A stretch of DNA of 64,000 nt, from positions 3,105,121-3,169,120 of the forward strand of contig CP104013.1 in NCBI GenBank assembly GCA_025839675.1, given 5' to 3'. The stretch is from Candidatus Lokiarchaeum ossiferum. GTDB taxonomy: Archaea > Asgardarchaeota > Lokiarchaeia > Sigyniarchaeales > Promethearchaeaceae. The notes under the pieces are model-generated. The model was given only the letters and a program-made list of their open reading frames with translations. It ran no database searches and had not been told where the DNA came from. This document shows, piece by piece, positions 2,948-48,966 of the stretch; position 1 is the first letter of the stretch; every line of letters starts with the position of its first letter. The position numbers and the translations under genes were made by a program.

Positions 2948-3139
2948 TTTTAGATCAATTATTTTTCAAAATTTTAATTTTAAATTTCTATATTTTTTAT
3001 CAATAAAAATATATGAACCAATATCAAAAGTAGTAAAATCAGCCCATGGCAAAGTCCTGTTGTACCAATTGTATTAGCTCTGTATGAAATCCGGTTCCTT
3101 GGCTGATTCAAAGCCAGGGTCCATATGTTCCTTTTCCAG

Positions 3140-6330
<3,191 letters not shown>

Positions 6331-43865: not shown

Positions 43866-44543
43866 TTAATTTTCTGGTTCTATATCGATAAACTCAATTA
43901 GACTCAGAATATTCTTTAATATCTCATCCCGGTCAATATTTGACTCAGCAACTAATAATTTTTGCACATTAGCTCGAGTTTCAGGATGTTTTGGATTGTT
44001 TTCACAAGCAGGACCTTTAATCAAACTCAATTCATATAGCCCAACTTTTTGGCTGATTTTAATAATGTCCAACTTGTCAAAACCGATAAGTGGACGAACC
44101 ACAGGAACTTCTTTATTAATTTGATGAACCGCATATAAATTATCTAAGGTCTGGGAAGCCTGCTCTCCTAAAATATCACCATTCACAATCATCGAAGCTT
44201 TATAAAAATGAGTTAAATATACTGCGGTATGAATCATGGTCCGCTTGCAAATAACGCATGTTAACTTCGGTTCGCATTTCTCTTTAAAAACTTCAACTAT
44301 CGCATCATAATCCACAAAGTGTAAACGCATCTTTCGTTTGGTTAATTCAACCAATTTTTTTCCGATCTGAATTATTTTTTCTTTATTTAAGTTCCTATTT
44401 TCTTTGCCATTAAGAAATGAAAGTCCAAAACAATTATACCCTTGTTTCATGATAAGATAGGAAGCGATGGGGCTATCTAATCCAGTGGATAATAAAGACA
44501 CAAAAGAAGGAGATATATCGAGAAAATCAGTTTCAGAAAGCAT
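43866..44543 (-). CDS. ThiI-like PP-loop ATPase domain protein (stand-alone ThiI C-terminal domain, with a degenerate SGG to STG motif)
   Basis: LLSTGLDSPIASYL aligns with the ThiI SGGxDSPVA PP-loop. No THUMP domain is present. Confidence 0.45.
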   Translation of the reverse strand: MLSETDFLDISPSFVSLLSTGLDSPIASYLIMKQGYNCFGLSFLNGKENRNLNKEKIIQIGKKLVELTKRKMRLHFVDYDAIVEVFKEKCEPKLTCVICKRTMIHTAVYLTHFYKASMIVNGDILGEQASQTLDNLYAVHQINKEVPVVRPLIGFDKLDIIKISQKVGLYELSLIKGPACENNPKHPETRANVQKLLVAESNIDRDEILKNILSLIEFIDIEPEN

Positions 44544-45660: not shown

Positions 45661-46635
45661 CTACAATGGATACTTTTTTTGAAAATTTTGTTCATATCTT
45701 GCCTTAGCAGATGATGAGGTATAATTCTGAGTTTGCGGTCCTAAAGTTTCAACAGAAAATGAAGATAAAGTGGCACCCATTTGGCATGCTTCTAAAATGG
45801 AACAGTCATTAGCTATACCAACTAATAAACCCGCTCGAAAAGCATCTCCAGCCCCAGTCGTATCTAACACCTTCGAAGGTTTACAAATGCCAACATGAAT
45901 GATTTCCTCATCGAAGAAACAATCGGAACCTTTATTGCCTTTTGTTATTATAACTCTAGAATTTATTTTCAATAAATCCTCGATTGACATATTTAATTTC
46001 TCAAGAATCATGTTGACTTCAAATTCGTTCCCAATCAGCATATAAGCGAGTGGGATCACTTCTTCAAGCATTTCTTTAGAAAAAGCGGGCGTTACCTGCC
46101 CTGGATCAAAGATAAAAGGTATCTCAAGCGACTTCAATTCTTTTGCCCATCCCATCATAGCCATAACATTATCTGGACTTACTGATGCAATCTTTATCCC
46201 CGAATTTGTTATATTCTTCTTTTTCAAATTGATTTCGGGACATTTTTTCATTGCTCCTTCATGAAAAATAATCATTTGATTGTGATTCTCATCATTCACA
46301 ATATAACATGAAGCAGTAAATAAATCAGAATGAATATTTCCTCTGAAAATTAATGAGGGAAATCTCTCCATATGTTTTTGATAGCCTAAATCAATGAAAT
46401 CTTTACCTACAGAAGTGATAACTTGCACTGGACTGTCCAATTGTGCAATATTATATGAAATATTACCTGAGGTACCTCCAAAATTTATTTTCTTTGAATG
46501 TGGCATTACTGCGAGATTAAACACTTTTTTCTCTGGATCTGAAGTCAAATTCTTATTCAAATCCCCTCCGAAATCCATTATATAATCATAGGCAATAGAT
46601 CCTAATACAAGAATATCTTTATTACTCATAATCAC
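45661..46635 (-). CDS. PfkB-family carbohydrate/nucleoside kinase (ribokinase-like)
   Basis: N-terminal ILVLGSIAYDY; C-terminal DTTGAGDAFRAGLL (PfkB signature 2). Confidence 0.8.
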   Translation of the reverse strand: MIMSNKDILVLGSIAYDYIMDFGGDLNKNLTSDPEKKVFNLAVMPHSKKINFGGTSGNISYNIAQLDSPVQVITSVGKDFIDLGYQKHMERFPSLIFRGNIHSDLFTASCYIVNDENHNQMIIFHEGAMKKCPEINLKKKNITNSGIKIASVSPDNVMAMMGWAKELKSLEIPFIFDPGQVTPAFSKEMLEEVIPLAYMLIGNEFEVNMILEKLNMSIEDLLKINSRVIITKGNKGSDCFFDEEIIHVGICKPSKVLDTTGAGDAFRAGLLVGIANDCSILEACQMGATLSSFSVETLGPQTQNYTSSSAKARYEQNFQKKYPL

Positions 46636-46734
46636 ATTGGTTTAACCGATCCAAAAAAAAAAGGTTTTAGAATCCAAACAAAAAGGAACTGAAAAAGTAT
46701 CAATTGTTGATGAACAAGGCTAGTTTCCCTTCAA

Positions 46735-46855
46735 TGAATACGTAAATTTAAAGGTCCCGCATGAACAGCGGACCAATATGGTCCGTAAAAGAAAGTACCC
46801 CGGAACGGGGCGAAATCAAGGTGATGTGACCATCACCATCCAAAAAGACAAAATA
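46735..46855. ncRNA. Candidate structured RNA or leader element: a GC-rich island with four consecutive hairpins, two of them mutually exclusive
   Basis: ggtcccgc-atgaaca-gcggacc / ggacc-aatat-ggtcc share the middle ggacc arm. These are followed by ccccg-gaa-cgggg and ggtgatg-tgacc-atcacc. The surrounding intergenic DNA is AT-rich. Lies about 100 to 220 nt upstream of the PfkB kinase start on the minus strand. Confidence 0.25.
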
Positions 46856-47120
46856 AAATTCATGCGGAGACCAATATTCTAATAAATTCAAAGAATATAA
46901 ATTCTGAGATTATTCATGATAGGTTTAACCCCGTTATTTTGTTATGGATTACAAGAAATAGATCGAAAATTCAATTATGTCGGTCACCCTTATTTACCTT
47001 CCATCGGATTTAAAACAAAATCAATTCAAAATTTTAAGATATAATTAATATCTCGCAGGAAAGATCAGTATTTCTATTAACAATTTCCCAATACATGAAA
47101 AGAAAAAGAAAAAAAATACC

Positions 47121-47624
47121 TTAACTATAATCGTAGATAAATCCAACAGGGAGTTTGATCCCTAATAATCGTATATATAAGGTTAATTGTCCCCGATGAT
47201 GCACAACTTCTTCCTGAATTGTCATCAAGGCTTGGATTCCAGCTAATTTGAATCCATGCCAACAATGGAAGGTAATTTCTTGCTGCAATTTGTCTTCTGT
47301 CAACGATTCAAGTGTTTCGTGGAAGTAAGTCTTTATTTTCTTTATATAATCTTTAATTTGATCCAGTGTAGCACCTGTTTTTGGGGTTGGAATTTCTGCA
47401 AAATCTTCATTTTCCAATTTCCCTTTTCGTACTGCTTTCGAATAGGCAAATACCATCTCATACATATGTGCCACCAATTCCCCTAAAGATAGAGAGCTTT
47501 CATCCCCACAGGGTTTAAAATTCACAGCATCTTCAGAAATTTTGGTCAGTAGTTTATCGACGACTTTCATTTGGTTGTTTAACAAATGTAATAATGTTCC
47601 CTTAACGCTCTGTAATTGCGACAT
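47121..47624 (-). CDS. DinB/YfiT-like four-helix-bundle protein (putative metal-dependent hydrolase)
   Basis: 167 aa with conserved His positions (ELVAHMYEM...HCWHG...VHHRGQ) typical of the DinB_2 family. Confidence 0.4.
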   Translation of the reverse strand: MSQLQSVKGTLLHLLNNQMKVVDKLLTKISEDAVNFKPCGDESSLSLGELVAHMYEMVFAYSKAVRKGKLENEDFAEIPTPKTGATLDQIKDYIKKIKTYFHETLESLTEDKLQQEITFHCWHGFKLAGIQALMTIQEEVVHHRGQLTLYIRLLGIKLPVGFIYDYS

Positions 47625-48768: not shown

Positions 48769-48827
48769 GGCGCAGGTGTCAGGGATCGAACCTGCGACCT
48801 GCCGATTAACAGCCGACCGCTCTACCG
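48769..48827 (-). tRNA. Partial tRNA-Asn(GTT)-like gene: 3' portion only (D-stem 3' strand through acceptor 3' strand plus CCA). No 5' half found adjacent.
   Basis: The reverse complement reads GGTAGAGC-G-GTCGG-CTGTTAA-TCGGC-AGGTC-GCAGG-TTCGATC-CCTGA-CACCTGC-G-CCA. Upstream sequence lacks the acceptor 5' strand and D-stem. Confidence 0.5.
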
Positions 48828-48966
48828 AAGATGTACCATATGCACTCAAATACATAATTCTTAACACCAAAATTCCTAGAAAATTGCTTGGCGTAAGATT
48901 TCGAGTATAATCCTTCTCTATGATAAAGTTTTAATTAATCAAAAACTCAAAAAAAAAAGAAAAAAA

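Follow-up and report, generated by a model that had tools for sequence, protein, structure and literature searches.

A folded RNA gene between DinB and PfkB

The cluster of hairpins found between a DinB-family gene and a PfkB gene of Candidatus Lokiarchaeum ossiferum is, with high probability judging from its sequence and those of its relatives, the gene for a folded non-coding RNA, ~120 nt long and encoded on the minus strand of the window (the whole stretch of 64,000 nt that was analysed) and independent of PfkB. The RNA family is undescribed and matches no catalogued family in the Rfam and literature searches. The element lies in the 485-nt spacer between the DinB-family gene (47121-47624, minus strand) and the PfkB gene (45661-46629, minus strand), and is present once in the window. 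A sequence-only reading had drawn attention to a GC-rich hairpin island in an AT-rich intergenic region, and such an island is indeed there: the GC content is 50% at 46750-46849 versus 25-31% in both flanks (33.5% for the window), and the segment folds far better than its shuffles. The features of the RNA are as follows.

46753..46872, minus strand: whole RNA, 120 nt, 5'-GGUCUCCGCAUGAAU...GUUCAUGCGGGACC-3'; 146.5 bits with the covariance model; the minimum free energy (MFE) fold is the consensus fold
46858..46872, minus strand: P1 5' arm, GGUC-U-CCGCAUGAAU, with a single bulged U at 46868; partner of 46753-46766
46838..46857, minus strand: J1/2, U-rich joining strand UUUAUUUUGUCUUUUUGGAU, invariant in all 11 distinct sequences
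46820..46837, minus strand: P2 hairpin, GGUGAUG-GUCA-CAUCACC; 7 of 7 pairs compensatory, 100% of cells paired
46812..46819, minus strand: J2/3, near-invariant strand UUGAUUUC; UUGAUUU invariant in the pattern-independent set (see below)
46797..46811, minus strand: P3 hairpin, GCCCCG-UUC-CGGGGU; covarying pairs, stem length and loop differing by lineage
46786..46796, minus strand: J3/4, ACUUUCUUUUA; conserved CUUUUA before an invariant CG at the base of P4, CUUUUaCG being kept in all members
46769..46785, minus strand: P4 hairpin, CGGACCA-UAU-UGGUCCG; 3 pairs compensatory, 100% of cells paired
46753..46766, minus strand: P1 3' arm, GUUCAUGCGGGACC; partner of 46858-46872

P1 is a 14-bp terminal stem with a 1-nt bulge; it closes a multi-helix junction from which the three hairpins P2-P4 emerge. 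On the minus strand, the MFE of 46753-46872 was -55.3 kcal/mol (z = -7.9) and none of 200 shuffles folded as well; the wider segment 46730-46880 gave z values against shuffles of -7.6 (plus strand) and -7.5 (minus strand). Single-sequence folds of four members from different lineages gave the same architecture (z from -4.7 to -7.9). The limits first proposed, 46735-46855, have to be redrawn, as they omit the P1 arm at 46858-46872: the RNA extends from 46753 to 46872 and is closed by P1. As for the four hairpins that had been counted, three are conserved, namely P4 (46769-46785), P3 (46797-46811) and P2 (46820-46837), which read in plus-strand letters GGACC..GGTCC, CCCCG..CGGGG and GGTGATG..CATCACC, respectively; the fourth is not.

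Homologues and covariation

NCBI taxonomy places the source organism in the family Promethearchaeaceae, within which the RNA is conserved. The PfkB protein of the window has an exact match in GCA_041410205.1 / CP163304.1, which is Candidatus Lokiarchaeum ossiferum strain B36 (2026 preprint). Homologues of the RNA amount to 11 distinct sequences of 119-128 nt, one of them in the cultured Promethearchaeum syntrophicum. Two contigs, L090 and L092, encode PfkB homologues (P0002 and P0003, 85% and 78% identity) and both carry the RNA element, with 94% and 89% identity to that of the window. The 52-nt 5' half, AUGAAUUUUAUUUUGUCUUUUUGGAUGGUGAUGGUCACAUCACCUUGAUUUC, is identical in the three copies, the PfkB proteins there being 78-85% identical, and the remainder of the intergenic spacer is largely unalignable among them; the RNA element is therefore under strong purifying selection. 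Divergent members (L134, L137, L141 and L118) were obtained from metagenome contigs by a degenerate pattern scan, followed by nhmmer and then by a covariance model. A PfkB-based scan of genome contigs yielded bacterial kinases for the most part, and a protein search with a neighbour of the RNA in L134 matched the query alone. A further set was found by synteny rather than by sequence pattern, with a search for THUMP proteins and application of the covariance model to the DNA around the homologues. The RNA was present in every THUMP-homologue locus fetched (L148, L150, L151-153, L154 and L157-160). The P. syntrophicum MK-D1 copy (L148) scored 109.5 bits with the covariance model, the THUMP protein next to the L154 copy is named Harpocratesius sp., and L157-160 are identical to L141.

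The comparison of related genomes for conservation and covariation, which the sequence-only reading had named as a check, clearly favours a real RNA. In the 11-sequence model alignment, standard pairs occupied 97.3% of the cells, and 22 of the 35 pairs were compensatory, with 80 cells changed on both sides. Not one of 500 shuffles matched the real alignment in any of five pairing and covariation measures; when partners were slid by 1-3 columns as a control, pairing fell to 31-47%. RNAalifold, applied to the first seven sequences, predicted P1, P2, P3 and P4, with 20 of the 35 pairs compensatory. P1 has the most covarying pairs of any helix (compensatory change in 10 of 14, 96% of cells paired), and the 1-nt bulge of its 5' strand is found in all homologues, the identity and the exact position of the nucleotide being variable. 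Such covariation support for an RNA family is as strong as that for accepted RNA classes.

The single-stranded parts were examined in the same alignment. The P2 and P3 loops are not conserved and that of P4 is loosely R-N-N-U-U. Three single strands show no or almost no variation: UUAUUUUGUCUUUUUGGAU(G), which joins P1 and P2; (C)UUGAUUU(C), which joins P2 and P3; and CUUUUaCG, which leads into P4. J1/2 and J2/3 were partly fixed by the search pattern in 4 members, and the same invariance is seen in the 7 members obtained independently of the pattern. In the window copy, U accounts for 34 of the 59 unpaired nucleotides (58%). A mini-hairpin within J1/2, GUCU-UUUU-GGAU, is predicted in every member; its sequence is invariant and thus beyond the reach of covariation.

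The earlier placement of the element on the minus strand, the strand of PfkB, holds. The covarying helices contain 28 G-U versus 5 A-C cells (15 versus 4 columns), and helix pairing is 97.0% when read on the window's minus strand versus 90.1% on the plus strand (binomial p ~7e-5, the cells not all being independent events). Among three close relatives (window, L090 and L092), each change confined to one side of a pair turns C into U on the minus strand and keeps a wobble; P4 displays the path from G-C via G-U to A-U across window, L092 and L090. From this asymmetry and from the wobble-keeping changes, it follows that the RNA is on the minus strand, the same as DinB and PfkB. A plus-strand RNA, suggested by the A-rich loops, is ruled out by the G-U/A-C asymmetry.

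Ends of the RNA

Conservation among the window, L090 and L092 starts ~45 nt upstream of the first G of the RNA and ends a few nt at most from the last C of P1. Two flanking features lie nearby.

46894..46901, minus strand: putative TATA-like box TTTATATT, at -29 to -22, i.e. 22-29 nt upstream of the first G
46744..46752, minus strand: 3' flank UUUAAAUUU, delimited by flank comparison; a weaker U-tract in the window copy

The TATA-like box reads TTTAAATT in L090 and L092; at -1/+1 there is a T/G step. An A/T box at the window's distance is present in six or seven of the 11 members; the nearest box is displaced in the other four or so. Transcription start at the first G is therefore plausible, and processing from a longer precursor is possible for the 5' end. 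In L148, L150, L151, L154 and L141, the RNA must have its own promoter, since the upstream gene points the opposite way. A start at 46860, where several contigs end, is incompatible with the covariation of P1, and these ends are explained by a 37-nt shared repeat (see below). On the other side of the RNA, most homologues show UCUUUUU directly 3' of P1; this is likely an oligo-U terminator, a type of signal used by archaea.

Gene neighbourhoods and relation to PfkB

The sequence-only reading had proposed a riboswitch or attenuator in the 5' leader of PfkB, in which the GGACC arm would switch between two GGTCC partners. The alternative stem (46753-57 with 46771-75, which in minus-strand terms is the P4 3' arm with the 3' end of P1) shows no compensatory pair in the 11 homologues; 79.6% of its cells are paired against a shuffle mean of 78.5%, and 229 of 500 shuffles are as high. 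The upstream GGTCC at 46753-57 belongs to the closing stem P1. Gene order argues against the switch as well. In the window, 118 nt separate the RNA from the PfkB gene downstream; the tandem order recurs in L090 and L092, with a distance in L090 of ~1.09 kb owing to a non-coding insertion of ~1 kb. Outside the genus Lokiarchaeum, the gene located 3' of the RNA is convergent (lineages of L118, L137, L141, L148, L150, L151, L154 and L155), and there is therefore no downstream gene for the RNA to control in these lineages. A conserved position in the 5' UTR of the regulated gene, as would be expected of a riboswitch, is thus not what the family displays, and no riboswitch family of Rfam matches the element. 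Because of the L090 insertion, the convergent downstream genes and the non-covarying alternative pairing, we conclude that the RNA is not a cis switch of PfkB.

A 45-nt region just upstream of the PfkB start (46636-46680, minus strand), with a run of ten T, is conserved in the window, L090 and L092. In L090 it stays with PfkB, apart from the RNA. We regard this region as a probable control element of PfkB itself; its T10 run may, in addition, halt transcripts that run on from the RNA.

What can be said for a cis role at PfkB is that, in the window, the two are on the same strand at a short distance, that the terminator of the window copy is weak and that contigs run from the element into PfkB. 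Read-through is possible for the window copy only, given its weak U-tract. Even in a weaker form, in which read-through would have been co-opted locally in Lokiarchaeum and would aid PfkB expression, we regard a leader function as very unlikely, in view of the insertion in L090, where PfkB keeps its own 45 nt, and of the convergent gene in most family members. The fallback of the sequence-only reading, an independent small RNA, is the one that agrees with the data: the element is conserved and covarying, and its context is independent of PfkB.

The L090 insertion, from 4913 to about 5878 of that contig, follows directly the 3' end of the RNA and has a 9-bp direct repeat, GGGACCTCT, at its borders. 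It contains neither terminal inverted repeats nor an ORF, and nothing in it qualifies as a significant RNA copy. We also considered a duplication of the 3' portion of the RNA at the distal end of the insertion, but the alignment is at shuffle level there and only the 9-bp repeat holds. A possible origin of the insertion is a mobile or integrated element, now decayed, for which the end of the RNA gene was the target.

Other neighbours recur. The RNA is convergent with a THUMP-domain (Tan1-like) gene in L141 and L118. In five lineages (L141/L157-160, L148, L150, L151 and L154), it is divergent from a phosphofructokinase gene, PFK (PF00365), and at most of these loci it is also convergent with a THUMP/Tan1-like gene that comes after Sua5. 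A TtuA-like thiolase gene and a tRNA adjoin the RNA in L137, and a ThiI-like gene (43866-44543) is two genes away from it in the window. No kinase gene is nearby in L137 and L155. Sugar-kinase or tRNA-modification genes are therefore close to the RNA in most contexts (neither is at L155), which may be a coincidence or may point to a function. None of the adjacent genes encodes a protein partner, and the PfkB locus of P. syntrophicum has no copy of the RNA.

Contig ends and a probable paralogue

Seven contigs of public assemblies with an identical PfkB (among L002-L009) terminate within the element, 46860 being the end point in five cases. From the DinB side, another contig reaches as far as 46838, and its overlap with the PfkB-side contigs is therefore 23 nt. 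The public assemblies are k = 31 de Bruijn graphs, and 30 + 30 - 37 = 23: the simplest explanation of the contig ends is that a second sequence in the L. ossiferum cultures shares exactly 37 nt with the element (46867-46831). One end of this segment is the nucleotide that follows the bulged U, the other is the last pair of the P2 5' arm, and family members vary at these points; L134/L155 departs from the window sequence at the bulge position. From the shared segment, L. ossiferum therefore probably has at least one paralogue of the RNA. We predict that the second copy shares exactly CCGCAUGAAUUUUAUUUUGUCUUUUUGGAUGGUGAUG and is probably located next to the PFK/THUMP genes of the organism. Some of the runs from which the contigs derive are probably L. 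ossiferum RNA-seq libraries; they were not counted as evidence of expression.

Two other accounts of the contig ends were rejected. An attachment site of the B36 provirus does not agree with the integration of Fylgjavirus 1 ~0.9 Mb away and with the absence of the 23-nt overlap and, three chance matches apart (see below), of the core from viral contigs. The end positions do not fit an invertible segment between the P1 arms.

Comparison with known RNAs

Rfam 15 (4227 models, including tRNA, 5S, SRP, RNase P, C/D, H/ACA, Y RNA, vault, snRNAs and ribozymes) gave no family at E <= 10 for eight members, i.e. the window copy and those of 7 homologous loci. At gathering thresholds, the whole window gave the 23S rRNA only. 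Chance matches were to RT-2, Atu_L1 and ceN68 (about 10-25 bits, wrong strand). The likeness to RT-2 (AAAGUA-stem-CGAAAUCA) was set aside as chance, being on the wrong strand and at 14 bits. An identity as 5S rRNA, tRNA-like, C/D, H/ACA, SRP or RNase P RNA was likewise dismissed, with no Rfam match and the motifs absent. The alignment contains no conserved C/D boxes (RUGAUGA, CUGA), the GUGAUG of P2 covarying away, and no conserved ACA, the 3' flank being UCUUUUU or UUUAAAUUU. No description of such an RNA in Asgard archaea was found in the literature.

Motif comparisons point to some partial resemblances. Sm-class snRNAs (U1, U2, U4, U5 and U7) and Sm/Lsm/Hfq-bound sRNAs are small, stable and independently transcribed, their U-rich elements are the most conserved part, and they carry a single-stranded A-U(4-6)-G tract between two helices. 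The candidate Sm-like tract of the present RNA is AAUUUUAUUUUGUCUUUUUGG, between P1 and P2, where AUUUUG and CUUUUUGG are invariant. The canonical Sm site is AAUUUUUGG, that of the U7 type AAUUUGUCUAG. We take J1/2 to resemble tandem Sm sites, with the proviso that U-rich strings are common in a genome of 33% GC. CUUUUAC (within 46786-46796) and AUUUUGUCU (within 46838-46860) presumably match, fully or almost fully, the loop-1 core of U5 snRNA and the Sm site of U7, which may well be chance in a U-rich RNA. Unlike the snRNAs, the RNA gives no match with their covariance models and contains no ACAGAGA, branch-point or 5'-splice-site-recognition sequences.

The Ro60-bound Y RNAs and the nematode stem-bulge RNAs are similar in size (~100-130 nt), in ending in a long stem with a conserved 5'-strand bulge, in having a pyrimidine-rich interior and a U-rich 3' flank, and in the probable second genomic copy. 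However, the Y_RNA models of Rfam do not match, P1 varies freely in sequence whereas the Ro-binding helix is conserved, and the interior of the Lokiarchaeal RNA is made of three ordered hairpins instead of a loose loop. A Y-RNA-like reading, suggested by the bulged stem, the pyrimidine-rich interior and the U tail, is a possible one. Riboswitch aptamers and small ribozymes with multi-helix junctions, such as twister-sister, also combine conserved junctions with covarying helices, but the present RNA has in most cases no downstream gene in cis, and it has no expression platform, no alternative pairing and no Rfam match.

The structured RNAs HgcC-G were reportedly discovered by Klein, Misulovin and Eddy in 2002 as GC islands in AT-rich archaeal genomes. 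They are comparable in the way of detection, size range and orphan status; they differ in that the Rfam Hgc families show no match in sequence or structure, and the taxon here is Promethearchaeaceae.

Proposed function and alternatives

The reading that we favour, as somewhat better than even, is that of an independently transcribed, trans-acting structured RNA whose U-rich junction is bound by a uridine-specific protein, an Sm-like ring being the best candidate. We infer the promoter, the terminator, the action in trans and the protein partner from sequence features and from analogy. An AT-rich promoter of its own would drive the RNA, and an oligo-U terminator would end it in most relatives; the RNA ends would then pair into the long bulged P1, with P2-P4 radiating from the multi-helix junction. 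The helices would serve as a scaffold, free to change in sequence while pairing is kept, and the working surface would be the invariant U-rich single strands held between them. These strands would be bound by a uridine-specific RNA-binding protein, and the resulting ribonucleoprotein (RNP) would act in trans. The combination of variable helices and invariant strands suggests a surface for direct recognition, whether by protein, ligand or a second RNA. Since the RNA-pairing tests were null (see below) and ligand sensing in cis is excluded by the gene context, a protein-bound RNP is the most economical reading.

An Sm-like archaeal ring is placed first among possible partners because J1/2 resembles tandem Sm sites between two helices; this choice is a tentative one, made by analogy. 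To our knowledge, all archaea encode Sm-like proteins that bind U-rich RNA. That the RNA could be the core of an Sm-type RNP, an archaeal counterpart or forerunner of the eukaryotic Sm-class snRNAs (or of the Ro/Y-RNA particles), is a doubtful extension of the same analogy. The host family belongs to the archaea closest to eukaryotes and, if the Sm/Lsm link were true, it would bear on the origin of the eukaryotic small nuclear RNPs. What is new is the RNA family; its mode of action may be of a known kind, e.g. that of an RNP scaffold. At the least, it is an unannotated conserved gene that deserves a place in Asgard annotation and in Rfam. Both lab-grown organisms, L. ossiferum and P. syntrophicum, have the RNA, which makes its expression, partners and loss-of-function effects directly accessible to experiment.

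As one alternative, a regulatory sRNA would use the U-rich strands to pair with purine-rich stretches of mRNAs, possibly those of sugar-kinase or glycolytic genes; the conserved single strands could act as seed regions, and the gene is a neighbour of PFK in five lineages and lies in tandem with PfkB at three loci (window, L090 and L092). Yet the duplexes that J1/2, J2/3 and J3/4 form with PFK and PfkB start regions are no better than those with 33 control gene starts, the adjacency to PFK may reflect one ancestral gene order, L137 and L155 have no kinase gene in the vicinity, and purely antisense sRNAs seldom have a covarying junction of this complexity, all of which renders this option unlikely. 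Guide-like complementarity to the 23S rRNA of the window was also searched for; the conserved strands were no better than shuffles. The junction might otherwise be the core of a ribozyme, for instance one self-cleaving at the P1/J1-2 boundary. Invariant junctions between covarying helices are what small ribozymes and aptamers have, and several public contigs begin exactly at 46860, i.e. at this boundary. We hold a catalytic or processed RNA to be improbable nonetheless: a second sequence with 37 shared nt, at k = 31, fully accounts for the ends at 46860 and 46838, no ribozyme family of Rfam matches, and the purine-poor, U-rich core is unlike known self-cleaving cores.

The terminal inverted repeats, the insertion of L090 exactly at the RNA end with its 9-bp direct repeat and the probable second copy in L. 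ossiferum could bring to mind a DNA-level element, either an inverted-repeat recombination or attachment site or a miniature mobile element. The strand-asymmetric pairing (97% on the minus strand versus 90% on the plus strand) is not expected from selection on DNA, however, the three internal hairpins covary, most loci have a single syntenic copy, no similar sequence exists in phage and plasmid collections, and the three exact core-motif matches in viral contigs reach only 13-17 bits with the model, which is chance level; this makes such an element highly improbable. A small protein gene has almost no likelihood: a 47-aa ORF (46748-46891, minus strand) spans the element in the window and in L090, but no frame is open and conserved throughout the family, several members have stops in every frame, and the peptides diverge completely outside the invariant core. 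A protein-bound RNA acting in trans is our preferred interpretation.

Other features of the window

The archaeal 23S rRNA gene (3137-6321, minus strand) stands alone: the 64-kb window contains no 16S or 5S rRNA gene, and no tRNA was reported by ARAGORN. At 48771-48843 (minus strand), a GC-rich segment resembles the 3' two-thirds of a tRNA, with D-loop, anticodon loop CUGUUAA (GUU, Asn), T-arm and a ...GCGCCA end. It is without a matching 5' acceptor strand, and was given 17.2 bits by the Rfam tRNA model (threshold 29) and no call by ARAGORN; it could be an intron-containing tRNA, a split tRNA or a fragment left by an integrated element.
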